The notes: generated from the sequence alone by a model not told the origin. Shown: positions 23,685 to 44,626, numbered from the stretch's first letter. The stretch: 64,000 nt of DNA from Steroidobacteraceae bacterium (GCA_041910015.1 JAYRRR010000006.1:1503-65502); one strand, 5' to 3'. A program made the numbers and translations.

Positions 23685-23698
23685 GCGAGGAGTCGACC

Positions 23699-25514: not shown

Positions 25515-25525
25515 GGGAGCACACG

Positions 25526-26882: not shown

Positions 26883-26912
26883 CCGCGCGCCCGGACCCCA
26901 GGAAACATCGCG

Positions 26913-28391: not shown

Positions 28392-28415
28392 AGCAAGTCA
28401 GGGGACATCGCGTTC

Positions 28416-29402
28416 ATGTTACTCACCAAGCAACAGAAGATCACGCTCTACACCAACCTCGTCCGCGCCTGCACGCTCGACCGCATGATGATGCGCATCA
28501 TCCGCACGGGCCGCATGGTGGGCTTTTATCACGAAGGTGGCATCGCCCTGGCGCCTGGGATCGCCGCGGGGGCCTTCCTGCGCAAGGACGACATCATGTT
28601 CCCGCATTATCGCGCCCACGGCATCGCGCACATGCTGGCCAAGGGCATCGACCTGAAGCACTACGTGGCCGAGCACATGGGGCGCGTCGACGGATGCTGC
28701 AAGGGACGCTCGAGCTTTCACGTGTCCTTCCCAAAGGATCACGTCTTCGGCTGGTCAGGCAACATCGGCTCCAACTTCCCCCCGTGCGTTGGTTACGGGC
28801 TCGCCGCGCGCTACAAGGGCACCGACCAGGTGGTCATGAACTGCTCGGGTGACGGTTCCTATCAGGAAGGACGCGCCCACGAAGCGATGCTGATGTCCGC
28901 GAACTGGAAGTTGCCGGTCATCTTCTGGTGCGAGAACAACGGCATCGCGCAGCACAGCCCGCTCACCGACCTGTTTCCCGTCTCCGACATCTCGCGTCTG
29001 GCCCAGGGGTATGGCATTCCCTCGAAGATCGTCGACGGCCAGGACCTGCTCGCCGCCGGCGAAGCGGCGCTCGAGGCGATCGCTCACGTCAAGGCCGGCA
29101 AGGGCCCGATCTTCATCGAGCTGAAGACCCTGCGCGTGCAGGAGCACAACGTCGGCGGCCTCAACAACGAAGGCGCGACGCCGCGCGACCCGAAGCTCAT
29201 GCAGGAATGGCGCGAGACGCGTGACCCGGTGAAGATCGCCGCCGCCGCGCTGCTCGAGCAGAAAGTCCTGAAGCAGGCCGACCTCGACCGCATCCAGGCC
29301 GATGCCGACAAGGAAGCCGACGAGATGGACGCCTGGTGCGAGCAGAGCCCGAAAGCAACCCCGCCGGTTTCCGAACTTCTTGCCGGCGTGTACGCCGCTT
29401 GA
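28416..29402 (+). CDS. thiamine-diphosphate-dependent dehydrogenase E1 alpha subunit (acetoin dehydrogenase AcoA-like)
   Basis: TPP-binding motif SGDGSYQEGRAHEAMLMSANWKLPVIFWCENNG. The YRAHG motif is present. Confidence 0.88.
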   Translation: MLLTKQQKITLYTNLVRACTLDRMMMRIIRTGRMVGFYHEGGIALAPGIAAGAFLRKDDIMFPHYRAHGIAHMLAKGIDLKHYVAEHMGRVDGCCKGRSSFHVSFPKDHVFGWSGNIGSNFPPCVGYGLAARYKGTDQVVMNCSGDGSYQEGRAHEAMLMSANWKLPVIFWCENNGIAQHSPLTDLFPVSDISRLAQGYGIPSKIVDGQDLLAAGEAALEAIAHVKAGKGPIFIELKTLRVQEHNVGGLNNEGATPRDPKLMQEWRETRDPVKIAAAALLEQKVLKQADLDRIQADADKEADEMDAWCEQSPKATPPVSELLAGVYAA

Positions 29403-29416
29403 CCGAGAGAACAGCC

Positions 29417-30391
29417 ATGACCGCAGGCATTCGTGAGTTGACGATCAGTGAGGCCATGAAGGAAGCGCTGGCCGACGAGATGCGCCGCGACGACAACGTG
29501 CTGATGCTCGGCATCAGCATCCGCGCGGGCACGTTCCCGCACACCAAGGGCCTCTACGACGAATTCGGCGCCCGGCGCGTGCTCGATACGCCGCTGTCGG
29601 AAACCGGCTGCTTCGGCGCCGCCTTCGGCGCGGCCCAGGAAGGGCTGCGCCCCGTGCTCGACTTCATGTACGCGGGCTTTTCCTATTACGCCGGCTCCGA
29701 GGTCTTTCTGCAGGCCGGCCAGTATCACTTCCTGCACGGCAGCCAGCACCCGGTGCCCATGACCATGATCGGCACCTGCGGGGCCGGGCGCCGCGTCGGC
29801 AACGAGCACGCCACGCTGCCCTACGGCGCGCTGATCCACCACCCGGGAATCAAGGTCTGCATGCCGTCGACGCCCTACGACGCCAAGGGGCTGCTCAAGG
29901 CGGCGATTCGCGACAACAACCCGGTGTTCTTCCTCTGGCACACGACCATGATGACGGTCAAGGGTCCGGTGCCCGAAGACGACTACGTCGTTCCGCTCGG
30001 CGTCGCCGACGTCAAACGCGAGGGCAGTGACGTGACGGTGCTCGCCAGTGGCCTGCAGGTGCATCGCGCGCTCGAAGCCGCCGAGACGCTCAAGGATGAA
30101 ATCAGCGTCGAGGTCGTCGATGCGCGGAGCTTCGAGCCGTTCGACCTGCCCTGCCTGCTGAAGTCCGTCGAAAAGACGACGCGCCTCGTGACCGTCGACG
30201 AGGACTTCGAGCGTGCCGGGTTCGCTGCCGAGGTGTCCGCGCTGATGATGGAGCACGGTTACGACCTGCTCGACGCGCCGGTCAAGCGCGTCTGCCATCC
30301 GCCCATCCCCGTCCCCGGCGGTTACATGGACGCCTACACGATGCCGACGACCGAGCGCATCGTGGCTGGCATTCGCGACGTCTGCCGCTGA
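29417..30391 (+). CDS. E1 beta subunit (AcoB-like)
   Basis: MTAGIRELTISEAMKEALADEMRRDDNVLMLG and DTPLSETG, with a transketolase-like Pyr domain and C-terminal domain. ATG 29417 lies inside ORF 29336..30391. Confidence 0.9.
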   Translation: MTAGIRELTISEAMKEALADEMRRDDNVLMLGISIRAGTFPHTKGLYDEFGARRVLDTPLSETGCFGAAFGAAQEGLRPVLDFMYAGFSYYAGSEVFLQAGQYHFLHGSQHPVPMTMIGTCGAGRRVGNEHATLPYGALIHHPGIKVCMPSTPYDAKGLLKAAIRDNNPVFFLWHTTMMTVKGPVPEDDYVVPLGVADVKREGSDVTVLASGLQVHRALEAAETLKDEISVEVVDARSFEPFDLPCLLKSVEKTTRLVTVDEDFERAGFAAEVSALMMEHGYDLLDAPVKRVCHPPIPVPGGYMDAYTMPTTERIVAGIRDVCR

Positions 30392-30400
30392 GGGCTCGCC

Positions 30401-31768
30401 ATGATCCGCGACGTGATATTGCCGCAGCTTGCGATGGGCATGTCGGAGGGGACGATCGTCGAGTGGGCCGTGGCCGAGGGCGCGCACGTCGACAGGGACG
30501 CGCCGTTCGCTTCGATCGAAACGGAGAAGGTCGTCAACGAGCTTCCCTCGCCATACCGCGGCTTCGTGCATCTCTGCGTCGAGGTCGGCGAGGCTGTGCC
30601 GGTGGAGACAGTGATCGCCCGGATTGCCGAAACGGAAAGCGAATATCGCGAACTCGTCGGCTCTGGCTCGCCGCAGGTTGCCGCGACATCCCGGATCACC
30701 ACCGCCGAACCTTTCGCCGCGGCGACGGCGGCAATGGCCGAAGCGCCTGCGCGCCCTCCAGCCAGCGCTGCGGCCACCGCCGAGCCGGACGCCGCGGCGT
30801 CAGGAATGATCGCCGCAGTTGCTGCGCCGGCTCCGGGCCGCGCGGGCCGCGTGCGCGCCACCGGACTCGCGAGAAGGATCGCCCGCGAACATGGCCTCGA
30901 TCTTCGGAGCCTGACAGGCAGCGGGCCGGGCGGGCGGATCGTGCGGCAGGACGTGCTCGCGGCGCTGGAGCGGAAGCAGGCGACAGCGACGGCGACAGCG
31001 CCGGCGCCGGCTGCAGCGCCGACCGCAGGCACCACGGCTGCGCCCGCCATGCGTGAAAAGGCCCGCGTGCCGCTGACGGGCATGCGCAAGACCATTGCCG
31101 ATCGCATGATCCGGTCGAAGACGACCGCAGCGCACACGTATGCGTTCTTCGAGGTGGACGTCACCAACCTCGTGCGCGTGCGCAACACGATGCTCGATCG
31201 CGAAAAGGAACTCGGCGGGCGAATCTCGATGGTCTCCCTGCACGTCAAGGCGTTGTCCATCGCGTGCCAGCAGGTGCCGATCTGCAATTCCACCCTGACG
31301 AACGACGAAGTCGTCGTCTGGGACAACGTCAACGTCGGCATCGCCGTGGCGACGCCCGGCAGGACCGAGTATGAGTCGGGTCTCCACGTGCCCGTCATCC
31401 GCAACGTCGAGCGTCAGGGTGTCGTGGAGATCGACCGGCGGGTGCGCGATCTGACGGAGCGAGCGCGCAACGGGCGACTTTCGTCGGCCGAGATGACCGA
31501 CGGCACGATCACGCTTTCGAGCACGGCGGGTTTCATGCCGGGCCAATGGTCCGTGTCGACGCCGCTGATCAACCAGCCGCAGGTCGTCAACTTCCAGCCG
31601 GGATCGCCGATCCAGAAACCCGTGGTCGTCGATGGTGAGATCGTGGTGCGCACGATGCTGCCCTGCGGGCTCAGCTACGATCACCGCGCGATGGATGGCG
31701 AGCCGGTTGGCCGCTTCATCCGCAAGCTGTCGGACCTGCTCGCCCATCCGGAGCTGATGCTGTTGTAG
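30401..31768 (+). CDS. dihydrolipoamide acyltransferase E2 (AcoC-like)
   Basis: Lipoyl domain (ASIETEKVVNELPSP) followed by an Ala/Pro linker. Peripheral-subunit-binding domain (ATGLARRIAREHGLDLRSLTGSGPGGRI). Catalytic domain with SYDHRAMDGEP. Confidence 0.9.
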   Translation: MIRDVILPQLAMGMSEGTIVEWAVAEGAHVDRDAPFASIETEKVVNELPSPYRGFVHLCVEVGEAVPVETVIARIAETESEYRELVGSGSPQVAATSRITTAEPFAAATAAMAEAPARPPASAAATAEPDAAASGMIAAVAAPAPGRAGRVRATGLARRIAREHGLDLRSLTGSGPGGRIVRQDVLAALERKQATATATAPAPAAAPTAGTTAAPAMREKARVPLTGMRKTIADRMIRSKTTAAHTYAFFEVDVTNLVRVRNTMLDREKELGGRISMVSLHVKALSIACQQVPICNSTLTNDEVVVWDNVNVGIAVATPGRTEYESGLHVPVIRNVERQGVVEIDRRVRDLTERARNGRLSSAEMTDGTITLSSTAGFMPGQWSVSTPLINQPQVVNFQPGSPIQKPVVVDGEIVVRTMLPCGLSYDHRAMDGEPVGRFIRKLSDLLAHPELMLL

Positions 31769-31833: not shown

Positions 31834-33259
31834 TCAAATCAGACCGGCCCGCTGGGCCGTGCGCGCCGCCGGAATCATCCACCGGCGGATGTTGCGGTGC
31901 TGCCGCCCCGGGTCGTCCACTGCGCGCGGACGCGTGAGCGGGAAGGGCAGCCGGTCGGGACGATCGGCTGCCAGTGCCTCCGCGAGCAGCTTGCCCATCA
32001 AAGGCGCCATGACGTTGCCCCAGGCGTTGAAGTGCATCAGCCCGTACAGACCCGGGCGCAGTTCGTAGGCACCCGGGAACTCGACGTCGCGAAGTGCCAC
32101 ACGACCCGTCCAGTAGGTCTCGAGCTCGACCGGGACGTCACGCGGCCGGCCAAGTACGCTGCAGCCACGCGAGCTGGGTTGCGAAGTGCCAGGCCGCGTC
32201 CTGCGGTTTCGCGATGGCCGGTATCGAGGACAGCACCAGCCGCCCGTGGCGATCCTTGACCAGCGGATTGAGGTCGATCGGGTACTGCGCGAGCGTCGCA
32301 CCGCCCGGCATGACCTGCAACCGCAGTGGTGTCGCCAGCGGTCGCGTCGTCAGCGCATAGGCAGTGAGCGGATAGAAGCAGCGCGCGAACTCGGGGACGA
32401 TCGCCGTGGGGCAGGCGTTGGTGCAGAACACTGCGCGATCCACCCGGACGCTGCCACGCGCGGTCGTGACGCACCAGCGCCGGCCAGTGCCTTCGATGCC
32501 CAGCGCCTCGCTGTCGCCGTGTACGGCCGCGTCCAGAGGCGCCGCCGCGGTCGCCATGCCGTTCGTGAACAGATAGGGATTGATGCGACCGCCGTCCTCG
32601 AGCATCACGCCGTGGTCGTATCGCGTGCTGCCGGACAGGGCGTGAACCTCATCGCCGTGCAACACGCGTGTGTTCTGGATGCCGAGCCGCGTCAGGTACT
32701 CGAACGCCCACATGAACTTCTCGACGTCATCGGCATCCTTCATGACGTTCAGGTAGCCCGAGCGGACGGCATCGCAATCGATCCGCAGCCTCTGGCTGAG
32801 GTCGAACGGAATCGTGTGGTGTTCGCGGAACGCCTCGAGGAATGCCTTGCCACGACCGGGAAACGTCCCTGGCCCGCCGATGTCGCGCAGCAGCGGCAGG
32901 ACGTGGCCCGCGTTGCGACCCGACGCACCCCATCCCGGCTGACGCCCCTCGAGGATGGCGACCTGCACACCGCGCTCGGCCAGGTGCAGCGCGAGCGAGC
33001 TGCCGGCCAGGCCCGCGCCAACGACGACCACATCGACGTCGATGTCGCCGGCGAGTGCGGGAAAGGGCGGCTACGGGCCCGCCGGCCGTGTCCAGCCGCT
33101 GCGCTCGACGGGCACGAGGCCGAGGTCGTACAACTCGAACTCGCTCCGCGCATGCCTGTCGCGTTCGGTCAGTGGTTCATCGCGGCCACAACCGGCGGGT
33201 GCGGCGCCGAGGCCGAGTGCCAGTGCGGAGCGCAGGACGTCGCGCCGGTTCATCGTCAT
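31834..33259 (-). pseudogene. FAD-dependent oxidoreductase (DAO family) with Tat/lipoprotein-like leader; in-frame TAG and one frameshift
   Basis: The leader MTMNRRDVLRSALALGLGAAPAGC ends in TAG (33073..33071) in the same frame as DIDVDVVVVGAGLAGSS. The C-terminal part (VPVELETYWTGRVALRDVEFPG...GNVMAPLMGKLLAEAL) is in a different frame from about 32150. Confidence 0.65.
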
Positions 33260-33261
33260 GC

Positions 33262-33696
33262 TCAGTGCTCTAACGTCAATACGGCCAGACCGGAGATCAT
33301 GAGCCCGATCCCGCTCCAGTCACGGACCGAGGGCCGTTCGCCCAGGAATGCAACGGCGAGCACGACGACCCACACGACGCTCGACTTGTCCATGAGCGCC
33401 ACCTTGGCAAGGTCTCCGAGCTGGAGCGCCTTGAAATAGCAAAGCCAGGAGGCACCGGTCGCCAGGGCCGAAAGTGTCAGCAACAACAGCGTCCGGCCGG
33501 GCAGGTCCAGGGGATTGGACCACTTGCCGGTGATCAGGACCAGGGGCACGACGAGCGCGGCAACCACGAGGGTCCTGATGGCCATGGCCAGCTCGGAATC
33601 CACGTCCTGCACGCCCATCTTGGCTAACACGGCGGTGAGCGCGGCAGAACACGCCGACGCCAGGGCCCACGTTATCCAGCCTGCCGAGGAGACCAT
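33262..33696 (-). CDS. small EamA-domain (DMT superfamily) membrane protein
   Basis: 144 aa from ATG 33696 with about 4-5 TM segments. Pattern WLCYFKALQLGDLAKVALMDKSSVVWVVVLAVAFLGE is typical of half-size EamA proteins. Confidence 0.75.
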   Translation of the reverse strand: MVSSAGWITWALASACSAALTAVLAKMGVQDVDSELAMAIRTLVVAALVVPLVLITGKWSNPLDLPGRTLLLLTLSALATGASWLCYFKALQLGDLAKVALMDKSSVVWVVVLAVAFLGERPSVRDWSGIGLMISGLAVLTLEH

Positions 33697-33863
33697 GTCA
33701 CTCGCTCCGACGTTCCGGCGAAGGCGGCAGTTTGTGGCATCCGGACGGAGACGGCACATTACCAAAAGAGAATTATACGCAACGCAAGGTGTATCCAATG
33801 TCCTGCCAACGGCTCACCCTGCCGGCCACACCGCCATGCCGGCGCGACCGGGGGAGACACAGG

Positions 33864-36401
33864 ATGAATGCCATCAGCTCGCAGATCGCCGACGACCTGG
33901 GCAGGCCAACCGAACTGGTCGCGCTGTCGGCCCAGGAACGCGCCATCGAACAGGGCAGCCGCGCCCTGCACGGCAACGTGAGCGATCGCGTGCTGCGGAT
34001 GTTCGATGCGATCCGCCAATATGGCAGCCCGCGCGCCGCTCTCGATCGCGCGGTGTTCTTCACCGAGTCGTTCAAGACCACCGAAGGCCAGCCGCTCGTA
34101 CTGCGCTGGGCGAAGGCGCTCGTGCACGTCTGCGAGAACCTGCCCGTCACGATCTTCGACGATGAACTGATCGTCGGCCGGCCGAACACCTGGCTCGGCC
34201 GTTATGGCCTCGTGTATGGCGAGCTCGACGGCAGTCTGCTCGAGGCCGCGGCCGAGGCCAGCGTGACGCAGGCCGGGCAGAAGGGCGCGATCGCGATGAC
34301 TGACGAAGACCGTCGCGTCGTCGCGGAGGTGCTGTATCCGCACTGGAACGGCCGCGATTTCGGCACGGCCTTCGTGCGCGCGCTGCCCGAGTCGACGCGG
34401 TTCTACTTCTTCGGCCCGGACCGCGACAACACGGCGAGCGCGACCGGCGTCGGCATGTGCTCGGCGATCTGGCGCCATTCGCAGAACTGGGTGCACGACT
34501 TCGCCAGGATCCTCAACCTCGGGTGCTTCGGCATCCGGGCCGAAGCCGAGGCCCGCATCGCCGCACTCGAGGATCCGCACGACGTCGCGCTGAAGAAGCC
34601 GTACCTCGAGGCCGTCGTGCTGACCTGCGACGCGATCTCGACCTGGGCGCGCCGCTACTCCGAAAAGGCCGCGCAGATGGCGGTGACCGAGACGCGGCCC
34701 GGGCGCAAGCGCGAGCTCGAGCGCATCGCCGAGGTGTGCGCGCGGGTGCCCGAGCATCCCGCGCGCAGCTTCCACGAAGCGGTGCAGGCGCAGTGGTTCG
34801 CGCAGCTCTTTTCACGGCTCGAGCAGAACATCGGCGGCCAGGTGAGCCAGGGCCGCATGGACCAGTACCTGTACCCGTTCTATCGCCGCGACGTCGATGC
34901 CGGCACGCTCACGAAGGCGCAGGCCGAGGAACTGCTGCAGTGCGTCTGGCTCAACATGATGCAGAGCACCGAGATCAAGATGTCCCCGACGGCGGCCGCG
35001 AGCATGGAGGGTTTCGCGCACTTCGAGCAGATCACGATCGGCGGACAGACCCCCGACGGCCGCGATGCCACGAACGAGCTCACCTATGTGATGCTCGACT
35101 CGGCGCGCCCGCTGCAGTCGAGCTATCCCGAACTCGCGGCACGCATCCACTCGGGCACGCCCGACCGGTTCCTGCACGCCGTGGCGGAGGCCATCAAGGA
35201 TGGCAAGGGCACGCCAAAGGTGCTCAACGACGAGCAGATCGTGCCGTTCTATCTCGCCAACGGCGCCACCGTCGAGGAAGCGCTCGACTACGCGGGCTCC
35301 GGCTGCATCGAGTCGCGGCTCGTCAACCGCGAGACGCACGTCACCGGCAACAGCGCGATCAATTACGGCTCGGTGATCGAGATGACGCTGCGCGACGGGC
35401 GCATCAAGGTGTGGAAGGACCTGCGGTTCGGCGTCGCGACCGGCGACCCGCGCAGCTTCGCCACGTTCGACGACGTCTGGCGCGCCTTCTGCGCGCAGCT
35501 GGAGAACACGCTGCGCCACATCATGACGCAGCAGTACGTCGCGCTGGATCTGAAGCCGCGTCATTTCGCGGCGCCGTTCGCCTCGATGCTGCACGAGCTC
35601 GCCACGAAGGCGTGCATGGACCTGCACCGGCACGGCGAGTACATCCCGGGCGGCATCGACCTCTCGTGCATCGAGTCGATCGGCAAGGGCACGGCGATCG
35701 ACTCGCTCGCGGCGATCAAGCACCTGGTCTACGACACGAAGAAGCTCGGCTGGGACGAACTGCTCGACGCGATCGAGCGCAACTGGGAAGGCTGTGAGGC
35801 GACCCGTCAGCTCTGCCTCAACGCGCCCAAGTACGGCAACGGCATCGACTGGGTGGAGCAGATCGGCTTCGACATCGAGAAGTTCATTCTCGACTTCCTG
35901 CGCCGCCATCCGAAGCCGCACGGGCAGGCGTTCATGCTCCGCTGCATCCCGGTCACGATCCACGTGCCGATGGGTCGCGTGGTCGCGGCGACGCCGAACG
36001 GCCGTCCGGCCGGCGAATACCTCTCCGAGGGCATCTCGCCGTCGCACGGCATGGACGTGCAGGGGCCGACGGTGTCGCTGCGCTCGATGGCGCGCGCACG
36101 CTGCCTCGGTTACAAGGAGAAGGCCGCCGACCTCATCAACATGAAGTTTACGCCGCAGACCGTGGCGGGCGAGGAGGGCACGCGGCGCCTCATGCAGGTG
36201 CTGCGCACCTGGTGCGACCTCAAGCTCTGGCACCTGCAGTTCAACATCCTGAACCGCTCGACGCTGCTCGCCGCGCAACGCGATCCCGAGAAGTACCGCA
36301 ACCTCGTCGTGCGCATCGCCGGCTATTCGGCGTACTTCGTCGACCTCACGCCGATGCAGCAGGCCGAGATCATCGCGCGCACCGAGGAGCAGATGTCCTG
36401 A
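33864..36401 (+). CDS. glycyl-radical enzyme (PFL-like fold, Cys-x-Glu eliminase-type loop), substrate unknown
   Basis: 845 aa. C-terminal glycyl radical motif VVRIAGYSAYFVDLTPMQQAEII and thiyl loop AGSGCIESR. ATG 33864 follows gggaga. Confidence 0.9.
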   Translation: MNAISSQIADDLGRPTELVALSAQERAIEQGSRALHGNVSDRVLRMFDAIRQYGSPRAALDRAVFFTESFKTTEGQPLVLRWAKALVHVCENLPVTIFDDELIVGRPNTWLGRYGLVYGELDGSLLEAAAEASVTQAGQKGAIAMTDEDRRVVAEVLYPHWNGRDFGTAFVRALPESTRFYFFGPDRDNTASATGVGMCSAIWRHSQNWVHDFARILNLGCFGIRAEAEARIAALEDPHDVALKKPYLEAVVLTCDAISTWARRYSEKAAQMAVTETRPGRKRELERIAEVCARVPEHPARSFHEAVQAQWFAQLFSRLEQNIGGQVSQGRMDQYLYPFYRRDVDAGTLTKAQAEELLQCVWLNMMQSTEIKMSPTAAASMEGFAHFEQITIGGQTPDGRDATNELTYVMLDSARPLQSSYPELAARIHSGTPDRFLHAVAEAIKDGKGTPKVLNDEQIVPFYLANGATVEEALDYAGSGCIESRLVNRETHVTGNSAINYGSVIEMTLRDGRIKVWKDLRFGVATGDPRSFATFDDVWRAFCAQLENTLRHIMTQQYVALDLKPRHFAAPFASMLHELATKACMDLHRHGEYIPGGIDLSCIESIGKGTAIDSLAAIKHLVYDTKKLGWDELLDAIERNWEGCEATRQLCLNAPKYGNGIDWVEQIGFDIEKFILDFLRRHPKPHGQAFMLRCIPVTIHVPMGRVVAATPNGRPAGEYLSEGISPSHGMDVQGPTVSLRSMARARCLGYKEKAADLINMKFTPQTVAGEEGTRRLMQVLRTWCDLKLWHLQFNILNRSTLLAAQRDPEKYRNLVVRIAGYSAYFVDLTPMQQAEIIARTEEQMS

Positions 36402-36423
36402 CGCGTCCGGGGGGGGGTGATCC

Positions 36424-37464
36424 ATGAACGCGCCCGCTGGGGTCGTCTTCAACATCCAGCGTTTCTCGACGGACGACGGGCCCGGCATCCGCACGACCGT
36501 GTTCCTGAAGGGTTGCCCGCTGCGCTGCAAGGCCTGCAGCAATCCGGAAGGCCTCGCCGCACGGCCGCAACTGCTCTACCGCACGTCGAAGTGCATCGGC
36601 GCGTCGCAGTGCGGCCGCTGCCTGCCGAAGTGCCCGGCACACGCGCTGTCGGTGGGTGAAGACGGCAAAGTGCGCGTCGACTTCGCGAGTTGCACGGATT
36701 GCGGGTGCTGCGTCGAGGCGTGTCCGTCGCAGGCGCTCGAGATCGTCGGCAGGCAGATGAGCGTCGACCAGGTGCTCGCCGTCGTGGAGGCGGAGCAGGC
36801 GTTCCATTCCCGCTCGGGCGGCGGCATCACGCTCTCCGGCGGCGAAGTCCTGCGGCAGTCGAAGTTCGCGGCGGCGCTGCTCGAGGAAGCGCGCAGGCGC
36901 GGCATGACGACCGCGATCGAAACCTCCGGCATGGGCCGCTGGCAGGCGCTCGCGCGGCTGCTGCCCCACTGTGACAGCGTCCACTACGACATCAAGTGCC
37001 TCGACCGCGAGCGGCATCGGCGGTTCACGGGCCTGCCGAACGACCTGATCCTGCGCAACCTCCGCAGGCTCTGCGAGGTCTTTCCGCACGACCGCATCGT
37101 CGTGCGCACGCCGTTCATCCCCGGGGTCAACGGCACGGTCGAGGACGTGCGCGCGATCGGCGGGTTCCTGCGCTCCATCGGTGACGACCTGCACTACGAG
37201 TTGCTCCCGTACCATCGCTACGGCGAGGCCAAGTACGGTTTCCTGGGCATGACCCCGCCGATGACTTCCGTCGTGCCCGGCGCGGAAGCGGCGGCGATTC
37301 ATGCGGAACTCGCGCGTTACCGTGTCCGCGAGCGCGCCACGGTGCCGTTGTCGCCGCGACAGGGGCGGCCGCTGCTCGAGCGGATAGGGGTCAGGGTCGA
37401 CCCGGAGGGGTCTGATCCCACCCGACCCCACCCGCGCAGAGGGGGCGCTCCCGCTGCAACCTGA
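36424..37464 (+). CDS. glycyl-radical enzyme activating protein (radical SAM)
   Basis: FSTDDGPGIRTTVFLKGCPLRCKACSNPE (Cx3Cx2C). Ferredoxin-like insert with two Cys groups (CIGASQCGRCLPKCP; CTDCGCCVEACP). GGGITLSGGE is present. Confidence 0.92.
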   Translation: MNAPAGVVFNIQRFSTDDGPGIRTTVFLKGCPLRCKACSNPEGLAARPQLLYRTSKCIGASQCGRCLPKCPAHALSVGEDGKVRVDFASCTDCGCCVEACPSQALEIVGRQMSVDQVLAVVEAEQAFHSRSGGGITLSGGEVLRQSKFAAALLEEARRRGMTTAIETSGMGRWQALARLLPHCDSVHYDIKCLDRERHRRFTGLPNDLILRNLRRLCEVFPHDRIVVRTPFIPGVNGTVEDVRAIGGFLRSIGDDLHYELLPYHRYGEAKYGFLGMTPPMTSVVPGAEAAAIHAELARYRVRERATVPLSPRQGRPLLERIGVRVDPEGSDPTRPHPRRGGAPAAT

Positions 37465-37550
37465 GGCACACTGGCTGCAACCGCGGGCGCATTGGTCCCG
37501 CGACGTCACGCGAATACTGCGACCTCACGTACACGACAGGAGTCCGCAAC

Positions 37551-38600
37551 ATGTATTTCGCAGACGACGCGCTGCTCCCCGAGAACCAGGACGAACTGAT
37601 CATCACGGCCGCACCCTACGGCCCCGAGTGGCTGCCCTCGGACTTCCCGGAAGACGTCCCGGTCACGCTCGACGAGCAGGTGCAGAAGGCCGTCGACTGC
37701 TGGAACGCCGGCGCCACGGTGCTGCACGTCCACGTCCGCGAGGCCGACGGCAAGGGCAGCAAGCGGCTGTCGATGTTCAACGAACTGATCGCGCGCCTGC
37801 GCGATCGCATCCCGGAGATGGTGCTGCAGGTCGGCGGCTCGATCTCGTTCTCGCCGGAGAACGACGGCGACCGGGCCAGATGGCTCCGTTACGACACGCG
37901 TCATCTGCTCGCCGATCTCACGCCCAAGCCCGACCAGGTGACGATCGTGGTCAATACCTCGCAGATGAACATCATGGAGCTCATGAGCGCCGACGACACG
38001 CAGGGCACGCAGTATGCGAATCCGGCCGTCCGCTCCGCCTGGAGTGACATGGTCGTCGACGCGACGCCGTCGTTCTTCATCGAGCATCTGCAGCGGCTGC
38101 GCGCCGCCGGCATCCAGCCGTATTTCATGCTGGCGCACGTCGCGCAGCTCGAGACCTGCGAGCGGCTGATCCGGCGTGGGCAGTACATGGGGCCCTTCAA
38201 CCACTGCTACGTCGCGATCGGCGGCGGCGCCGCGGGGCCCGATCCGTTCCAGATGATGGACTACGTGCGTCGCTCCCCGCAGGGTGGCGTGCTGCAGATC
38301 GAGGGCATCATGCGCAACGTGCCGCCGATGATGGCGATGGCGATCGCGATGGGCCTGCACGTGCGTGTCGGCATCGAGGACAACCTCTGGCGGCGCAGTG
38401 GCGAGCGCTTCACCTCGGTGCAGCAGGTCGAGCAGATGGTGCGGCTCGCGCGCGAACTCGGCCGCGACGTGGCGACGGGCACCGACGCACGGCGCATCCT
38501 CCGGGTCGGTACGGTCTACGACAGCGTCGACGAGACGCTGCAGGCGCTCGGCATGTCGCCGAATCGCAAGCCGGGACAGCGGGGCTTCCTTGTCGGCTGA
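37551..38600 (+). CDS. BKACE / DUF849 family beta-keto-acid cleavage enzyme
   Basis: ITAAPYG, GATVLHVHVREADG (HxH metal ligands), GLHVRVGIEDNLW. SD acaggag upstream. Confidence 0.85.
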   Translation: MYFADDALLPENQDELIITAAPYGPEWLPSDFPEDVPVTLDEQVQKAVDCWNAGATVLHVHVREADGKGSKRLSMFNELIARLRDRIPEMVLQVGGSISFSPENDGDRARWLRYDTRHLLADLTPKPDQVTIVVNTSQMNIMELMSADDTQGTQYANPAVRSAWSDMVVDATPSFFIEHLQRLRAAGIQPYFMLAHVAQLETCERLIRRGQYMGPFNHCYVAIGGGAAGPDPFQMMDYVRRSPQGGVLQIEGIMRNVPPMMAMAIAMGLHVRVGIEDNLWRRSGERFTSVQQVEQMVRLARELGRDVATGTDARRILRVGTVYDSVDETLQALGMSPNRKPGQRGFLVG

Positions 38601-38673: not shown

Positions 38674-39720
38674 GTGCCGGGCGATACGAGCTGTCCCGTC
38701 GGCGCGCTGTCGGAATTGCCGAACCTGCTGCGCGAGGCCGGCAACGACCCCTGGCAGCTGCTCGAATCGTTCGGCGTCACGCCGGCGATCATGGCGCAGC
38801 CGATGACGCCCGTGCCCTTGCGCCTGCACGGTCAGATCATGCAGGCGGCGGCCGACGCCATGGGGCGGGACGACCTCGGGCTGCTGGTTGGCCAGAGGTC
38901 GACCATGGAGAACGCCGGGCCGCTGCGCCTGCTGGTGCAGAACGCCCGCACGACGCGCGACGCCGTCGACGGCCTCGTGCGCTACCTGGGCCTGTGGTTC
39001 CATGGCATCCAGCTCAACCTGACGCGCGACCAGGGCTACGCCTGCCTGTCGATCTCGGTCGACAGGCGCTTTCCCGGTCGCGATCACGTGCTGACGGGCT
39101 TCCTCGCGGCGCTGGTGAAGCAGCTCGAGGCGATCTTCCCGCGAAGCTGGCGGCCGTCGCTCGTGCACATTTCGTACCGGCGGCCGCCATCGGCCGCGAA
39201 ATACGCGCGGTTCTTCCGCGCACCCGTGCTCTACGACCAGCCGCGCCACGCGGTGTTCTTCCCGGCGTCCGCGCTGGACGAGACACGACCGGGCTCGCAG
39301 CAGATGCTCGAATCGTTTCTGCGCGGCTACTTGGGCGATCTGGAGGCGCGCGAGCAGCCCGATTTCGTGTCGCGCGTGCGCCACGTGATCGAGAACCTGC
39401 TCGCGAGCGGGCATTGCTCGATCGAGCGCGTCGCCGAGCTGTTCTCGGTCCATCGCGTGACGCTGCACCGCCACCTGAGCGGTTACGGCACCACGTTCGA
39501 GCAGTTGCTCGACGAATCGCGCTGCGAACTCGCGCAGCGCATGCTCGAGCAGACGGACCTGCCGGTCGGCGAGATCGCGACGGCGATCGGCTACGGTTCG
39601 GCGGGAAGCTTCGTCCGCGCCTACAAGCGCTGGCACGGGATCACGCCGGGTGCCGGCCGGCGACGTCGGCCACAGCCCGGACGCACCGGGTCTGCGATGC
39701 GGCTCGCGCCGCGGACGTGA
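38674..39720 (+). CDS. AraC-family transcriptional regulator (AraC_binding_2-type N-domain)
   Basis: C-terminal double HTH (SIERVAELFSVHRVTLHRHL..., VGEIATAIGYGSAGSFVRAYKRWHGITP). The start is uncertain: GTG 38674, or TTG 38590 overlapping the BKACE stop. Confidence 0.8.
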   Translation: MPGDTSCPVGALSELPNLLREAGNDPWQLLESFGVTPAIMAQPMTPVPLRLHGQIMQAAADAMGRDDLGLLVGQRSTMENAGPLRLLVQNARTTRDAVDGLVRYLGLWFHGIQLNLTRDQGYACLSISVDRRFPGRDHVLTGFLAALVKQLEAIFPRSWRPSLVHISYRRPPSAAKYARFFRAPVLYDQPRHAVFFPASALDETRPGSQQMLESFLRGYLGDLEAREQPDFVSRVRHVIENLLASGHCSIERVAELFSVHRVTLHRHLSGYGTTFEQLLDESRCELAQRMLEQTDLPVGEIATAIGYGSAGSFVRAYKRWHGITPGAGRRRRPQPGRTGSAMRLAPRT

Positions 39721-39756: not shown

Positions 39757-41085
39757 ATGGGAGGGTACACAGCGCCACCGGTCGACGACGTTGTCGCGCG
39801 CCGTGGCAGCTCGTCCCGATTCTACGCCTGGGTCGTGTTCGCGCTGACCTGCGGCCTGATGCTGTCGGATTACGTTTCGCGACAGGTCATCACGCCAATC
39901 TTCCCGTTGTTGAAGGGCGAATGGTCGCTGACCGACATGCAGCTCGGGGCACTGGTGAGCGTCGTGGCCCTGATCGTCGGCGTGGGCTCACTGCCGATCG
40001 CGCTGGCCGCGGACCGCTGGGGCCGCGTGCGCAGCATCAGCGTCATGGCTGGTCTCTGGGGCATCGCCACCGTCGGTTGCGGGCTCGCGCAGACCTACGG
40101 GCAGATGATGTTCGCGCGCGCGCTGGTCGGGCTGGGGGAGGCGGGGTACGGCAGCGCGGGGTCGGCCATCCTGTTCCACGTGTTCCCGAGGCGTCGTCAC
40201 GCGGTCGTTGGTGCCGCATTCCTCGCCGCCGCGTTGTTCGGCACCGTGGGTGGCGTGTTGGCCGGCGGCGTGATCTCGACGCGCTACGGCTGGCGCACGG
40301 CCTTCATCGGCGTCGGCATCGCCGGCCTGCTGCTCGTCGCGCTGTACCCGTTCGTCGTGCGCGATTATGAGACGGTGCCACTGCTCAAGACCGATGCCGC
40401 GGGCGCCCCGGCGCGACGCATGCGCGTCGGCGAGACCGTGCGCGAACTCTTCGCGACGCGCACCGCGATCCTCACCTACGTCGCGAGCGGTTGCCAGATG
40501 TTCGTCACCGGCGCGGTCGTCGCGTGGATCCCGAGCTACCTGAGTCGCTACTGCGGTCTCGCCGCCGACGAGGCCGCGATGCAGGCCGCCGTGGTCGTGC
40601 TCGTCGCAGGTGTCGGTATGATCGCGACCGGATGGACGGTGGACACGCTCGGCATCCGCGACAAGCGCAACAAGCTGCGAGTTCCGGCGGCCTACTGCGT
40701 GCTGTCGGCGATCGTGCTCGCCACTGCGTTCGCGCTGCCGCCCGGCACGATGCAGTTCGGCGCGATCCTCGTCGGCATGTTCGCCGCGGGTGCACACACG
40801 GGCGCCACCGGCGCCGTCATCAGCGACGTGACGCACCCGGGGTTGCGTGCCACGGCACTCGCCACCGTCGTGCTCGGCAACAACCTGATCGGTCTCGCGC
40901 CGGGCCCGCTGGTGGTCGGCACGCTCTCGGACGCCTTCGGGCTCAAGCTGGCGCTGACGACCGCCGCATTGGCCGGCATCCTGTCGGCCATCTGCTTCCT
41001 GCTCGCGGCACGTGCCTATGAACACGAAGCGGGCCGGTGTGACGCATGGGTGTCCGGCGCCGCAACGGCGCGGGCCGCAGTCTGA
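39757..41085 (+). CDS. MFS transporter
   Basis: 442 aa with about 12 TM segments. The motif-A-like DRWGRVRS sits between TM2 and TM3. Confidence 0.85.
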   Translation: MGGYTAPPVDDVVARRGSSSRFYAWVVFALTCGLMLSDYVSRQVITPIFPLLKGEWSLTDMQLGALVSVVALIVGVGSLPIALAADRWGRVRSISVMAGLWGIATVGCGLAQTYGQMMFARALVGLGEAGYGSAGSAILFHVFPRRRHAVVGAAFLAAALFGTVGGVLAGGVISTRYGWRTAFIGVGIAGLLLVALYPFVVRDYETVPLLKTDAAGAPARRMRVGETVRELFATRTAILTYVASGCQMFVTGAVVAWIPSYLSRYCGLAADEAAMQAAVVVLVAGVGMIATGWTVDTLGIRDKRNKLRVPAAYCVLSAIVLATAFALPPGTMQFGAILVGMFAAGAHTGATGAVISDVTHPGLRATALATVVLGNNLIGLAPGPLVVGTLSDAFGLKLALTTAALAGILSAICFLLAARAYEHEAGRCDAWVSGAATARAAV

Positions 41086-41095: not shown

Positions 41096-41911
41096 ATGAT
41101 GGAACTCGAAGGCAAGACCGCGATCGTGACCGGCGCCGGGCGCGGCATCGGCGCCGGCATCGCGCGCGTGCTCGCGCGTGAGGGCGCGCGTGTCGTCGTC
41201 ATGGGTCGTCATGGCGCGGAAACCGGCCCCGTGGCCGAGTCGATCGCGGCGGCGGGCGGCCAGGCGATATCGGTCGTCGCCGACGTGACGCGGTGGGACA
41301 CGCTCGAGGCCATGGTGCGGGCCTCCCTCGATCGCTTCGAACGCATCGACATCCTCGTCAACAACGCCGGCACCGAGGGTGTCCCGCGGCTGCTCGCCGA
41401 CATCGCCGTCGAGCAGTGGGACCGTATCCTCGACGTGAACTTGAAGGGCGTGTTCCTGTGCTGCAAGGCCGTGGTGCCCGCGATGGCCGACGGCGGCCGG
41501 ATCGTCAACATCGGTTCGATCGCGGGCCAGCGCATGACCTTCTTCGGCAGTCTCGATTACACGGTGTCCAAGCACGGGGTCGAAGGCTTGACGCGGCACC
41601 TCGCCTGGGAACTGGCCGACCGGCGCATCACGGTCAATTCGATCTGCCCGGGCGGGGTCCTCACGCCGCTCATGGAGGAGGGGACCTCGGCCGAGTTCCG
41701 CGACAAGGTGACGCGGAGGCTCGTGCCGCTCGGGCGCATGTGCACGATGGAGGAGATCGGCGAGGCGGTGAGTTTCCTCGCGAGCGACCGCGCGCGGATG
41801 ATCACCGGCCAGTCGCTCGCGGTGGACGGCGGCACGCTGACCGGCTACGGCGAGGACCTGCGACCGGTCATCCGGGGCCGCATGGCGGCCGCGGCCGCGG
41901 GCGGGCATTGA
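41096..41911 (+). CDS. short-chain dehydrogenase/reductase (SDR)
   Basis: TGAGRGIGAGIA, NNAG, and YTVSKHG (YxxxK). ATG 41096 follows ccaggaga. Confidence 0.9.
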   Translation: MMELEGKTAIVTGAGRGIGAGIARVLAREGARVVVMGRHGAETGPVAESIAAAGGQAISVVADVTRWDTLEAMVRASLDRFERIDILVNNAGTEGVPRLLADIAVEQWDRILDVNLKGVFLCCKAVVPAMADGGRIVNIGSIAGQRMTFFGSLDYTVSKHGVEGLTRHLAWELADRRITVNSICPGGVLTPLMEEGTSAEFRDKVTRRLVPLGRMCTMEEIGEAVSFLASDRARMITGQSLAVDGGTLTGYGEDLRPVIRGRMAAAAAGGH

Positions 41912-41930: not shown

Positions 41931-42755
41931 GTGGCATCGAGGGAGACGACGGACATGACGCACGATACGGGTCGGGATGGCGCGTGCCCCGACCGCGACG
42001 CCGCGATCGGCGGTCCCTGGGACGCGGCGCTCGAACAAGTGCGCGCGTGGGATCCGGCCTGGGCCGAGACCTGTCTGCGCATGTGCACCAACCCGTGGCG
42101 CAGTGGCGTGCTGTCGCGCCGGCTCGTCGAACTCATCGGCATCATGCTCAACGCCCAGTGCACGAACCTCGATCCGGGTGGAACCCGGCGGCACGTCCGC
42201 GCGGCGCTCGAGGCGGGTGCGACGGGCGAGGAAATCCTGTTCGTGCTCGAGTGCGCGGCGCTCGGCGGCATCCACTCGTGCAGCCTCGGCGCACCGATTC
42301 TCGTCGAGGAGGCGCGCGCCGCAGGCCGGGCCGTGGCGCCGCCCGCGGCAGTGCCCACGCCGACCTGCGACCGGCTGCGCGCCATCGGCCAGTGGAACCC
42401 CGCGTGGGACGACTTCTACGCTCTCGATCCGGCCTGGACCGAGGAGTTCATCGCGACCGGCATCCCGGTTTACACGAGCGGCGTGCTGCCGGCAAAGGAA
42501 GTCGAACTCCTCTGCATCGCCTTCGACGCGTCCTTCACGCATCTCTACGCGCCCGGCACGCGCCGCCACGTGCGGGCGGCGCTCGCGGCCGGAGCGACCG
42601 TGGAGGAGATCATGGAAGTGCTCAAGCTCTGCGTCGTGCAGGGCGTGCAATCCTGCAACCTCGGCGTGCCGATCCTCGCCGAGGAGCTGGCGCGATGGGA
42701 GCGCGCGCCGGTGGATGCGACGACGTCCGGCCGTTGCGACGAGCGTGCGCCATGA
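41931..42755 (+). CDS. tandem carboxymuconolactone-decarboxylase (CMD/AhpD-like) domain protein
   Basis: Two internally repeated halves are visible. GGTRRHVRAALEAGATGEEILFVLECAALGGIHSCSLGAPILVEE pairs with PGTRRHVRAALAAGATVEEIMEVLKLCVVQGVQSCNLGVPILAEE. The start could instead be the second Met (41955). Confidence 0.7.
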   Translation: MASRETTDMTHDTGRDGACPDRDAAIGGPWDAALEQVRAWDPAWAETCLRMCTNPWRSGVLSRRLVELIGIMLNAQCTNLDPGGTRRHVRAALEAGATGEEILFVLECAALGGIHSCSLGAPILVEEARAAGRAVAPPAAVPTPTCDRLRAIGQWNPAWDDFYALDPAWTEEFIATGIPVYTSGVLPAKEVELLCIAFDASFTHLYAPGTRRHVRAALAAGATVEEIMEVLKLCVVQGVQSCNLGVPILAEELARWERAPVDATTSGRCDERAP

Positions 42756-43750
42756 GCGCGTCGCGCCTGCACCTGCTGCTGCCCGGCTTCGTCATCGCCG
42801 GGCTCGTGGCGCTCGCGGCCTCGTGGCTCGCCGAGCACTACGGCGCTCCGGTCATGCTGTTCGCGCTGCTGCTCGGCATGGCCGTCAACTTCCTGTCGCA
42901 GGACGAGCGCTGCCGGCCCGGCATCGACTTCGCGTCGCGCAGCGTGCTGCGGCTCGGCGTCGCGCTGCTGGGCGCGCGCATCACGCACGCGCAGGTGCAG
43001 TCACTGGGCGGCGCGGCGCTCGTGCTGACGGCGGGCGCCGTGGTGCTCACCATGGCCTGTGGCGTGCTGCTCGCTCGCGCGACGCGCCAGTCGACGGCGT
43101 ACGGACTGTTGACGGGCGGCTCCGTGGCCATCTGCGGCGCCTCAGCCGCGCTCGCGATCGCCTCTGTCCTGCCGCGCCACGCAGACCACGAACGCGACAC
43201 GGTCATGACGGTCGTGGCGGTCACGGCGCTGTCGACGGTGGCGATGGTGCTTTATCCGCTGGTGGCGGCCGCTGCAGGGTTCGACGCACGTGCGTCGGGC
43301 GTGTTCCTCGGCGCGACGATCCACGACGTGGCGCAGGTCGTGGGCGCGGGCTACAGCGTGTCGGCCGAGGCGGGCGATACGGCGACCATCGTCAAGCTGT
43401 TTCGCGTCGCGCTGCTGCTGCCGGTCGTGTTCACGATCTCGTTTGCGCTGCGCCGCTCCGGCGCGGGTGCCGGAGGCGGGCGCGGCCAGACTCCGCCGCT
43501 GCTGCCCGTCTTCCTGCTCGGCTTCGCGGCGCTCGTGGTCGTGAACTCGCTCGGCTGGCTGCCGCCGCTCGCGGCTGGTTCGCTGCAACAAGCTTCGCGC
43601 TGGTGCCTGCTGGTGGCGATCGCGGCGCTCGGCACCCGCACCTCGCTCGGCGAGCTCGCGCGCGTCGGCTGGCGGCCGGTCTCCCTGATCCTCGCCGAGA
43701 CGCTGTTCGTCGGCGTGTTCGTGCTCGCGGGTCTGGCGCTGCTGCGCTGA
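42752..43750 (+). CDS. YeiH/UPF0324-family integral membrane protein
   Basis: 332 aa, polytopic. GGSVAICGASAALA and TIHDVAQVVGAGY are typical of the family. ATG overlaps the CMD stop (ATGA). Confidence 0.75.
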   Translation: MSASRLHLLLPGFVIAGLVALAASWLAEHYGAPVMLFALLLGMAVNFLSQDERCRPGIDFASRSVLRLGVALLGARITHAQVQSLGGAALVLTAGAVVLTMACGVLLARATRQSTAYGLLTGGSVAICGASAALAIASVLPRHADHERDTVMTVVAVTALSTVAMVLYPLVAAAAGFDARASGVFLGATIHDVAQVVGAGYSVSAEAGDTATIVKLFRVALLLPVVFTISFALRRSGAGAGGGRGQTPPLLPVFLLGFAALVVVNSLGWLPPLAAGSLQQASRWCLLVAIAALGTRTSLGELARVGWRPVSLILAETLFVGVFVLAGLALLR

Positions 43751-43829
43751 GGAAACATCGGCCGGCCGGCACCGATACCGCGAGGCGGCGAACGGCGAAG
43801 GCCCCCGGTGCGCAGGCAGCCGGCGGCAC

Positions 43830-44540
43830 CCGCAGCGTGACGCGGTCCACCGTCTTGCCGAAGAAGTGATAGCCGGAACCGCCTGCGGCCAGCAGTCCGA
43901 GCAACTCGTCGGCCTGCCGCACACGCGCTCCGCCGATGACGGTGGCGCCGCGCCGCATGTGGGGGTTCGCCACCAGCGTGGCCGTCGGTCCGATCACCGC
44001 CGCTTCCTTGCCTGGCCGCAGCGGTTGCAGCAGGCCCTCCAGCGTGCCGTTGAGCAACGACGTGCCCGTGGTGATGAGCACGTCGGCTTCGGGGATCACT
44101 TCCGCAGCGCGCTCGACCGGGATGAAGTGCGGCAGCTCCTCGGGTTCCAAAGTCGCCGGTTCGAGTTCCAGGACGTTGAAGGGCTGTTGTCGCCGGTGCA
44201 GTTCGCGCATTTAGGGAGGAAAGGTGCCAACCAGCGCCACCCGCTGATCCGGCGCAATGGCCGGTTGCCCGGCACAGGTCCTGCGGCCGATACAGGTCGT
44301 CCAGCAGCGCGGCCGCGTTGCGCCCCGCGATCTTGCCCGGCACCGGCATCGCCCGGGCCGAACTCGGGCAGCACACCGCCTCGGGCACGCCCTCGATCGG
44401 CGTGGCGCAAAGACCGCCCGCGCCATTGGAGAGCTTGACGCCGGCGAAGAAGATGCCAAGCCCCACGCGTTCGACGGACAAGGTGCCGGCGTCGCGGCCC
44501 AGACGCTCGAGCACGGTGGTGTGCAGGTCGGAGAGCAGAC
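43830..44540 (-). pseudogene. DUF4213/DUF364 (Rossmann-like, putative chelatase-like) gene; start lost, one frameshift, in-frame TAA, natural stop lost
   Basis: N-domain frame: VERVGLGIFFAGVKLSNGAGGLCATP. Then ...RVALVGTFPP*MRELHRRQQPFNVLELEP...ADVLITTGTSLLNGTLEGLL...IGPTA. TAA is at 44213..44211. The only upstream Met (44571) lies inside the tRNA gene. Confidence 0.65.
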
Positions 44541-44541
44541 T

Positions 44542-44626
<85 letters not shown>

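Follow-up and report, generated by a model that had tools for sequence, protein, structure and literature searches.

Gene Cluster around a Glycyl Radical Enzyme

We examined a 64,000-nucleotide stretch of DNA from Steroidobacteraceae bacterium (GCA_041910015.1, JAYRRR010000006.1:1503-65502), referred to here as the window, in which a gene for an oxygen-sensitive glycyl radical enzyme (GRE) is followed by genes for its activase and for a DUF849 protein with the fold of β-keto acid cleavage enzymes (BKACE). An earlier note on this DNA had placed these three genes at positions 33864-38600, and the open reading frames (ORFs) and Pfam and TIGR models bear this out; all three run in one direction. 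The functional unit exceeds these three genes, spanning 33.9-42.8 kb and comprising the GRE, activase, DUF849, AraC, MFS, SDR, and CMD (carboxymuconolactone decarboxylase) genes. Third-position GC picks out a run of co-directional genes that includes the GRE in this window of ~68% G+C, and the exact GRE protein was found again on 21 metagenome contigs with the same neighbors. The features of the cluster are as follows.

33864..36401, + strand: GRE, 845 amino acids, 1,2-eliminase type (Pfam PFL-like and Gly_radical)
35304..35312, + strand: thiyl-loop codons Cys481-Ile482-Glu483 (motif position; aligned with IslA Cys468-Ile469-Glu470)
36321..36323, + strand: codon of the radical-bearing Gly820 in RIAGYSA (motif position)
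36424..37464, + strand: GRE activase (radical SAM), 346 amino acids (TIGR02494; Cx3Cx2C motif spanning residues 31-38, plus a pair of ferredoxin-like cluster motifs)
37551..38600, + strand: non-canonical, "G7"-type zinc enzyme of DUF849 (BKACE fold; Pfam BKACE, 216 bits; residue alignment)
38674..39720, + strand: AraC-family regulator (Arabinose_bd and HTH_18); start uncertain, GTG 38674 being the start called on identical contigs
39757..41085, + strand: MFS transporter; nearest model the anion:cation symporter family (D-galactonate transporter type), under cutoff
41096..41911, + strand: SDR oxidoreductase "SDR1"; an orthologue (57-67% identity) adjoins the GRE in distant phyla
41955..42755, + strand: two-domain CMD-family protein without an AhpD-type CxxC; homologue of the uncharacterized PDB entry 2Q0T

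Loci and proteins of retrieved relatives are denoted by L and P numbers (e.g., L004 and P0016), and genes of the window by the names in this list. Family-model searches with the SDR, CMD, MFS, and AraC proteins gave generic matches only and no substrate name. The nearer models of SDR1 include 3-hydroxybutyrate dehydrogenases (201-211 bits), which are also among its PDB matches, and the AraC regulator is QhpR-like by family model. No riboswitch or other RNA was found at the gathering threshold in the whole window, nor at E ≤ 1 upstream of the GRE (32900-33950), and the counts from promoter and terminator scans were at or under shuffle expectation. As the earlier note had remarked, microcompartment and sulfite-related context is missing: a crude tblastn search of the window with approximate shell sequences as queries gave no significant match, no BMC Pfam family occurs among the annotated neighbors, and no TRAP or sulfite genes are among the annotated genes in 32-44 kb.

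Active-Site Residues and Phylogeny of the GRE

The GRE scores 528 bits against PF02901 (PFL-like) and 96 bits against PF01228 (Gly_radical). Its start codon (ATG, 33864) is preceded by GGGGGAG, and the length of 845 amino acids agrees with that of full-length homologues (845-849). Both loops reported in the earlier note are present, the canonical Gly loop RIAGYSA at residues 817-823 (Gly820) and the thiyl loop GCIES at residues 480-484 (Cys481 and Glu483). According to a June 2026 review of GREs, a Cys-x-Glu motif in the thiyl loop marks the 1,2-eliminases, as opposed to the Cys-Cys of PFL. This motif upholds the assignment of the GRE to the eliminase rather than the PFL type, and the protein has the full set of catalytic elements expected of an eliminase. 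The activase scores 318 bits on TIGR02494 (cutoff 174); its residues 31-38 read CPLRCKAC (Cx3Cx2C), and two Cys-rich ferredoxin motifs are present as well.

Among solved structures, the GRE best matches the sulfonate C-S lyases IseG (5YMR, 850 bits), IslA (7KQ3, 826), and HpsG (6LON, 785), with CutC next at 478 bits. The GRE shares with these lyases the fold, the Gly loop, the Cys-x-Glu loop (Cys-Ile-Glu as in IslA), both sulfonate-anchoring arginines, and an adjacent dedicated activase with two extra Fe-S motifs. It occurs in environmental bacteria of facultative or aerobic type, not in sulfite- or sulfate-reducers, and its neighborhood differs from that of the lyases in lacking a TRAP transporter, a microcompartment, and a sulfoacetaldehyde reductase.

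A search of 5.8 billion proteins returned a dense GRE family at 62-96% identity, the clade as a whole spanning 62-100%, from Steroidobacteraceae, Burkholderiales, Halioglobus, Phycisphaerae, Planctomycetia, Luteitalea, Phormidium, Competibacteraceae, and a Mycobacterium metagenome-assembled genome (MAG), the closest relatives being Steroidobacteraceae and Gammaproteobacteria MAGs. The only cultured carriers seen, Luteitalea sp. TBR-22 and Phormidium sp. LEGE 05292, each belong to a sister subclade; in a search for a cultured or plasmid-borne annotated member, plasmid matches were all ≤35% identical. We aligned 204 sequences with the query and found the β1 motif RHSQNW in every member of its family (130+ clade members aligned), whereas IslA/IseG/HpsG-type sequences, 45-50% identical to the query, all have R-S-[SA]-[IL]-Q-W. 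Neighbor-joining bootstraps were 100/100 for the RHSQNW clade, 100/100 for the C-S lyase clade, 90/100 for their sister relationship, and 99/100 for the subclade of the query. A ~60% identity edge divides functions in the published C-S lyase network, and the global identity of 45-50% between the query and the C-S lyases lies under it. The GRE is thus, by predicted family and phylogeny, a Cys-x-Glu eliminase belonging to no characterized clade, as the earlier note had supposed. The enzyme is not the orphan that the same note took it for: its clade and that of the sulfonate C-S lyases are sisters, and both arginines are kept.

Published contacts in IseG provide a reference for the active site, with Arg187, Gln191, and Arg676 holding the sulfonate and Ile190, Thr310, and Phe680 packing against the substrate; equivalents are published for IslA and HpsG. 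In the query, the β1 motif reads W203-R204-H205-S206-Q207-N208-W209 and the β8 motif R693-C-I695-P-V697. Both anchoring arginines are retained (R204 and R693), but the Arg-Gln-Arg triad is incomplete, the Gln position being Asn208 in the query and Asn in all 130+ aligned clade members. The packing residues Ile190, Thr310, and Phe680 are replaced by Gln207, Gly325, and Val697, respectively, and further exchanges place His205 at a Ser position, Cys694 at the Tyr of IslA, Ile695 at IslA Val680, and Phe387 at IslA Trp374. These residues describe a predicted eliminase with a kept cationic anion pocket, a remodeled head-group site, and a larger cavity.

One database model would give this protein a name. 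NCBIfam NF048011 ("HpsG, Desulfovibrio type", an equivalog) scores the GRE at 1019.9 bits, just over its cutoff of 1000. We therefore scored controls and other clade members on the same model (L075, L082, L051, P0016, P0022, P0024, P0029, and P0075). Bilophila IslA, whose proven function is a different one, reaches 1483 bits, an HpsG-like protein 1498 bits, and an enterobacterial IseG-like protein 1539 bits, while five other RHSQNW-clade members score 983-1019 bits. The model thus spans the entire C-S lyase clade, and its 1000-bit cutoff bisects the sister clade (983-1020). The activase falls under the cutoff of the HpsH model (384 vs 430). We rejected the HpsG name on the ground that NF048011 does not separate IslA from HpsG-like proteins. 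The model labels IslA, HpsG, and borderline members of the clade alike, a hazard of automatic mislabeling for both groups.

The DUF849 Protein, Its Pairing with the GRE, and the Cluster Borders

We aligned the DUF849 protein with Kce (2Y7D), BKACE15/PdKce (8RIO), 3E02, and 37 homologues, which with the query form a subfamily of 38. The protein shares with canonical BKACEs (Kce 2Y7D; BKACE15/PdKce 8RIO/8RIP) the DUF849 TIM barrel, the His-x-His and Glu zinc ligands, and the Arg of R-x-G-x-E-D-N; the ligands H59, H61, and E276 and the conserved Arg R272 are invariant in all 38 subfamily members. The Glu equivalent to Kce Glu14, whose role we take to be amine binding, is retained in 27 of the 38. 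The catalytic Glu (Kce E143, BKACE15 E171), in contrast, is Met in 36 members, including the query (Met193), and Gln in the other 2. The residue two before this position changes from Glu to His or Tyr. Two residues after it, the Tyr that is counted as part of the canonical BKACE machinery (Kce Y145, PdKce Y173) becomes Ala, Ser, or Gly (Ala195 in the query), and the protein carries an insertion of ~50 residues after the third strand. The mutation E171L abolishes the activity of BKACE15. Scores on curated equivalogs are far under their cutoffs: 140 vs 382 for Kce, 97 vs 430 for triacetate lyase, and 82 vs 350 for the 3-oxoadipate enzyme. The BKACE label of the earlier note consequently holds at the level of the Pfam family (216 bits) but not for a canonical enzyme, given Met193 and Ala195.

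Homologues 54-64% identical occur on plasmids and chromids of Cupriavidus, Caballeronia, Paraburkholderia, Azoarcus, Rhodococcus, and Streptomyces. The DUF849 proteins of Azoarcus sp. KH32C and Rhodococcus gordoniae are 59-62% identical to that of the window and have Gln at the catalytic position, so that the catalytic Glu is lost in both. Their genes lie in the order quinone oxidoreductase, TauD/TfdA dioxygenase, DUF849, MFS transporter, and alpha/beta hydrolase, with AraC, CMD, YeiH, CoA-ligase, and acyl-CoA dehydrogenase genes nearby. This context is exactly the one described by the NetSyn authors for ASMC group G7 (their cluster 25), which typically comprises a quinone oxidoreductase and a taurine dioxygenase along with a BKACE-like protein, an MFS transporter, and a serine hydrolase. 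In that description, G7 was annotated as non-BKACE; it lacks a catalytic residue and is reported to have converted no keto acid in the family-wide screen. By residue alignment and context of its homologues, the window protein matches this non-BKACE group, although it has Met rather than Gln and is partnered by a GRE instead of a TauD-family dioxygenase.

Because the catalytic base is missing and the protein falls in G7, an acetyl-CoA-dependent split of a β-keto acid by the window protein is unlikely, and the cleavage step that the earlier note had built on it loses its basis. Other chemistry has precedent in the family, since the DUF849 member BsfD catalyzes acetyl transfer. Another member with other chemistry, cis-epoxysuccinate hydrolase, is among the PDB matches of the window protein. 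We also rejected the identity of a triacetate lyase, and with it the suggested link to phloroglucinol degradation, on the basis of 97 bits against a cutoff of 430.

Next we considered the pairing of the two enzymes. Loci were retrieved by the GRE alone, and a DUF849 gene was counted as present if it lay within 10 kb of the GRE. Adjacency of the two genes, whose confinement to a single genome had been set beforehand as grounds for refutation, is conserved in other genomes, with a DUF849 gene in 12 of 19 clade loci. The order GRE-AE-(SDR2)-DUF849-AraC-MFS-SDR1-CMD, in which AE is the activase, is collinear in five Gammaproteobacteria/Steroidobacteraceae MAG loci (L004-L008). A Burkholderiales MAG (L002) has the order CMD-DUF849-AraC-MFS-SDR2-GRE-SDR1-AE, L009 is similar, and the association is kept in rearranged form in two unassigned metagenome loci (L086 and L088) and a Rubrivivax MAG (L171). 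No DUF849, CMD, or SDR1 orthologue occurs in the 69 IslA/IseG/HpsG-clade loci. Three Steroidobacteraceae-type loci (L001, L010, and L013) have the GRE and activase without the other cluster genes, and two DUF849 genes with 82-85% identity (L093 and L101) have no GRE upstream. The GRE-DUF849 pairing is real, though not obligatory. It also appears to be undescribed, as the earlier note had suggested: we found no paper pairing the two in the searchable library, and such an enzyme is absent from the June 2026 review of GREs.

SDR1 and a CMD protein accompany the GRE most constantly, with SDR1 orthologues (57-67% identity, or 57-65% in the first four) beside the GRE in Phycisphaerae, Thermodesulfobacteriota, Phormidium, the Mycobacterium MAG, and Burkholderiales. 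Some subclades have a divergent PFK-family kinase and an SBF transporter in place of DUF849 and MFS. The kinase (250 bits, cutoff 430) lies between the GRE/SDR genes and the activase in four phyla, often with the SBF-family transporter (L003, Luteitalea sp. TBR-22; L083, Phycisphaerae; L169, Phormidium sp. LEGE 05292; L170, Mycobacterium MAG). The Phormidium locus holds both a PFK-like gene and DUF849/CMD remnants. The Luteitalea cluster also has AcnX-type dehydratase subunits, NifU, and SAM synthetase.

Two of the rearranged loci contain further genes. In locus L086, genes for a small ferredoxin, a universal stress protein, and a member of the nitroreductase family lie between DUF849/CMD and the GRE (6783-7813, 8955-9761, both on the - strand); their products may provide the activase with electrons or shield it. 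In L171 (91-9656, - strand), a four-gene set resembling acetone/acetophenone carboxylase (Hydantoinase_B, two Hydantoinase_A, and Acetone_carb_G), an AMP ligase, and a thiolase are divergent from the GRE. The L171 set hints at a methyl-ketone or acetoacetate intermediate.

Retrieval from the other side gave a different picture. Among 80 metagenome loci retrieved by DUF849, a GRE or activase was present in 6, but in only 1 of the 15 whose flanks each reach 4 kb or more. The common GRE-less layout has AraC divergent from a small CMD gene, DUF849, a Bug/TTT receptor or MFS gene, and a second SDR; CoA ligases, TRAP or NitT/TauT-type ABC transporters, MalT/LuxR regulators, and carboxylase subunits occur occasionally. 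Because most DUF849 relatives are without a GRE, the window cluster looks like a GRE-AE-SDR1-CMD module joined to a widespread DUF849 module.

The genes flanking the cluster are listed below.

20676-31768, + strand: molybdoenzyme operon, ending with an E2 gene at 31768, 2.1 kb upstream of the GRE
32138-33070, - strand: DAO-family FAD oxidoreductase ORF, ~297-311 amino acids, covering positions 29-304 of the 425-position pipecolate-oxidase model
33262..33696, - strand: EamA-family fragment, 144 amino acids (Pfam EamA on the identical metagenome contigs L175/L176), the left edge of the cluster
43351-44571, - strand: DUF4213/DUF364 ("putative heavy-metal chelation") gene, beyond the CMD gene
44542-44626, - strand: tRNA-Leu(CAG), overlapping the RNase R ORF at its mechanically listed start

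The EamA fragment sits inside a gap of ~0.8 kb between the short DAO-family ORF and the GRE. Both the DAO-family ORF and the EamA fragment appear truncated, and the same layout is found on independent metagenome contigs; this truncation suggests a rearrangement scar at the left border. On the other side, the two domains of the DUF4213/DUF364 gene fall in different overlapping ORFs, and a frameshift is possible.

The upstream operon encodes an AhtL/pyrogallol-hydroxytransferase-like molybdopterin large subunit (from ~20.7 kb), a 4Fe-4S small subunit, an HIBADH-like dehydrogenase, a 137-residue protein, an enoyl-CoA hydratase, an aldehyde dehydrogenase, and E1alpha, E1beta, and E2 of a 2-oxoacid or acetoin-type dehydrogenase complex. 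We take it to be closer to the anaerobic Azoarcus anaerobius cluster for resorcinol/hydroxyhydroquinone than to a phloroglucinol pathway. The thematic link that the earlier note drew from the GRE to this operon was rejected: no relative shows synteny between any part of it and the GRE, and none has a molybdoenzyme, E1/E2, aldehyde dehydrogenase, or enoyl-CoA hydratase homologue less than 10 kb from the GRE.

Candidate Pathway and Alternatives

The cluster probably encodes an undescribed anaerobic breakdown route other than the β-keto acid pathway of the earlier note. Our leading interpretation, which we place somewhat short of even, is that 33.9-42.8 kb forms one anaerobic catabolic module handling an anionic, probably sulfonated, hydroxy compound by a lyase route. 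The MFS protein would import the organic anion, and the AraC protein would regulate the module. The activase would place the radical on Gly820, after which Cys481 would take the H-atom from the carbinol carbon while Glu483 accepts the hydroxyl proton. An anionic group on the adjacent carbon, gripped by Arg204 and Arg693 with His205, Gln207, and Asn208, would leave; it is most probably sulfonate, departing as sulfite, and the product would be a ketone. With about the same confidence, we propose that the GRE desulfonates a 2-hydroxyalkyl sulfonate bulkier than isethionate, because the predicted pocket is larger than that of IslA (Phe to Val697, Thr to Gly325, and Tyr to Cys694). The SDR may interconvert 2-oxo and 2-hydroxy forms of the substrate or product, and DUF849 and CMD would then process the carbon skeleton in reactions distinct from acetyl-CoA-dependent β-keto acid cleavage.

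Clues to sulfur come from the relatives, those nearest to the GRE all being C-S lyases. The TauD-family dioxygenase beside G7-type DUF849 has taurine dioxygenase as its best model (240 bits, cutoff 313) and retains the Fe ligands, the 2-oxoglutarate Arg, and His70 and Arg270, the latter two being presumably the sulfonate binders of Escherichia coli TauD. Among the positions that we take to be its amine contacts, Tyr73 is replaced by Ala or Leu and Asn95 by Glu, while Ser158 is largely kept. No TauD-family dioxygenase occurs in the window itself, but the same orthologue (66-69% identity) is encoded in sibling GRE loci (L006, 20929-21795, - strand; L008, 21835-22545, - strand), 2-3 kb past the CMD gene and on the opposite strand. 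Five DUF849 loci also have YeiH-family "putative sulfate exporter" genes (TIGR00698). Because G7-type DUF849 is accompanied either by TauD or by a GRE, these arrangements suggest one pathway in which the same kind of group is removed with oxygen (TauD) or without it (GRE). In such a scheme, the GRE would do without oxygen what the TauD-type dioxygenase found with this DUF849 subfamily in aerobes does with it, and an oxidoreductase, either the quinone oxidoreductase or the SDR, would handle the carbonyl in either route. There are also hints that the substrate bears an amino or ammonium group, because of the Kce-Glu14 equivalent, the exchange of TauD Asn95 for Glu, the QhpR-like AraC regulator, and the FAD amine-oxidase-type genes that adjoin the cluster in the window and in L002.

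Several observations weigh against a sulfonate substrate. The motif R-H-S-Q-N is invariant in the clade, whereas all three characterized C-S lyases have R-S-S-[IL]-Q, so the head group or the binding mode may differ from that of the sulfonate lyases; HpsG, with the latter motif, already accepts a secondary alcohol. Neither the window cluster nor any of the ~20 clade loci that we inspected has a gene for a sulfite exporter, sulfite dehydrogenase, or sulfite reductase. DUF849 proteins linked to TauD belong to a Gln-type sub-branch only 59-65% identical to the Met-type of the window. TauD-family enzymes also use non-sulfonates, and sulfate export by YeiH is putative. A sulfonate model leaves unexplained why other subclades have a PFK-like kinase and an SBF transporter along with the GRE-SDR pair, and the ketone-carboxylase/CoA-ligase/thiolase set divergently adjacent in L171 is compatible with several models.

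The strongest of the alternatives, which we regard as unlikely, is an eliminase anchored through a carboxylate. The two arginines would hold a carboxylate, and hydroxyl, ammonium, or another group would leave from the other adjacent carbon. Examples would be the conversion of a 4-substituted 3-hydroxybutyrate (carnitine-like) to acetoacetate or of a 2,3-dihydroxy acid to a 3-keto acid, with the SDR as a 3-hydroxybutyrate-type dehydrogenase. The invariant change in the sulfonate motif suggests another head group, and the 3-hydroxybutyrate dehydrogenase models near SDR1 fit such a role. The MFS protein is nearest to sugar-acid anion symporters, the GRE-less DUF849 modules use Bug/TTT carboxylate-type receptors, and CoA-ligase and thiolase genes are found in L171 and L088, with a ketone carboxylase too in L171. 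The DUF849 protein retains the Zn/Arg site, which binds acetoacetate in canonical enzymes, and the frequent Glu14 equivalent (27 of 38) and the neighboring FAD amine-oxidase-type genes in the window and L002 also speak for this reading. However, the characterized relatives all use both arginines for the leaving sulfonate, the TauD and YeiH associations indicate sulfur, and the characterized GREs of this branch include neither a dehydratase nor a C-N lyase.

We consider improbable the pathway of the earlier note, in which a carbonyl product of the GRE is processed to a β-keto acid that a canonical BKACE and acetyl-CoA convert to an acyl-CoA and acetoacetate. Its attraction lies in the family match with conserved zinc ligands and Arg, the CoA-ligase and thiolase genes near some relatives, and the combination of SDR, BKACE, MFS, and AraC established for deoxyribonate catabolism. 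The deoxyribonate clusters of Pseudomonas simiae and Paraburkholderia, likened here by gene families, have the same vocabulary of AraC, DUF849, MFS, and SDR and the logic of oxidizing a 3-hydroxy acid before cleaving it. Their BKACE, however, is akin to enzymes with demonstrated keto acid activity, and they have neither a GRE nor CMD. The exchange of the catalytic Glu for Met or Gln throughout the subfamily, the loss of activity in BKACE15 E171L, Ala in place of the canonical Tyr, the TauD-linked context of the subfamily, which matches G7, a group reported to convert no keto acid, and the low scores on all NCBIfam BKACE equivalogs argue against canonical cleavage.

A phosphate or phosphonate eliminase is more improbable again. 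The extra His, Gln, and Asn would bind a phosphoryl group, either kinase-installed or part of a phosphonate, and the radical would expel phosphate or phosphite. The PFK-family kinase between GRE and activase in four phyla and the gain of hydrogen-bond donors in the anion pocket are consistent with this idea, and the IslA site should accept hydroxyethylphosphonate (Dawson et al.). Against it, the window cluster and its subclade contain neither a kinase nor a phosphite dehydrogenase or phosphonate gene, and the Phormidium locus combines the PFK-like gene with DUF849/CMD remnants, so the kinase may act downstream. The least probable explanation, for which we see very little room, is an ordinary orthologue of HpsG (2,3-dihydroxypropane-1-sulfonate sulfolyase) or IslA/IseG (isethionate sulfite-lyase): the narrow pass on NF048011 and the label "isethionate sulfite-lyase" given to two clade members by JGI are outweighed by the far higher scores of genuine IslA, HpsG-like, and IseG-like proteins, identities under the network edge, replacement of IseG Gln191, Ile190, Thr310, and Phe680, the activase score, and wholly different neighborhoods.

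Returning to the proposed lyase module, we judge it an even matter whether the RHSQNW clade catalyzes a reaction new to the list of GREs, whether desulfonation of a new class of natural sulfonate or radical elimination of ammonium, phosphate/phosphite, or hydroxyl alpha to a carboxylate, working with G7 DUF849 and CMD and with parallel TauD and GRE entry. The clade is spread over Steroidobacterales, Burkholderiales, Planctomycetota, Acidobacteriota, one cyanobacterium, and a Mycobacterium MAG. Whole GRE clades remain without an assigned function (June 2026 review), and characterized GRE eliminases come nearly all from gut and strict anaerobes, whereas the clade described here is large, environmental, and found in facultative or nominally aerobic lineages. 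Its conserved coupling to DUF849 gives a handle on the G7 group, for which screening gave no activity. The occurrence of the same module with a TauD-type dioxygenase, with a GRE, or with an SDR only suggests oxic and anoxic versions of one pathway and sharply narrows the candidate substrates. If the substrate is a sulfonate, the clade would give bacteria other than sulfate-reducers a route of anaerobic sulfite release in soil, sediment, and sludge. The clade and G7, the orphan DUF849 group, thereby both become experimentally approachable.

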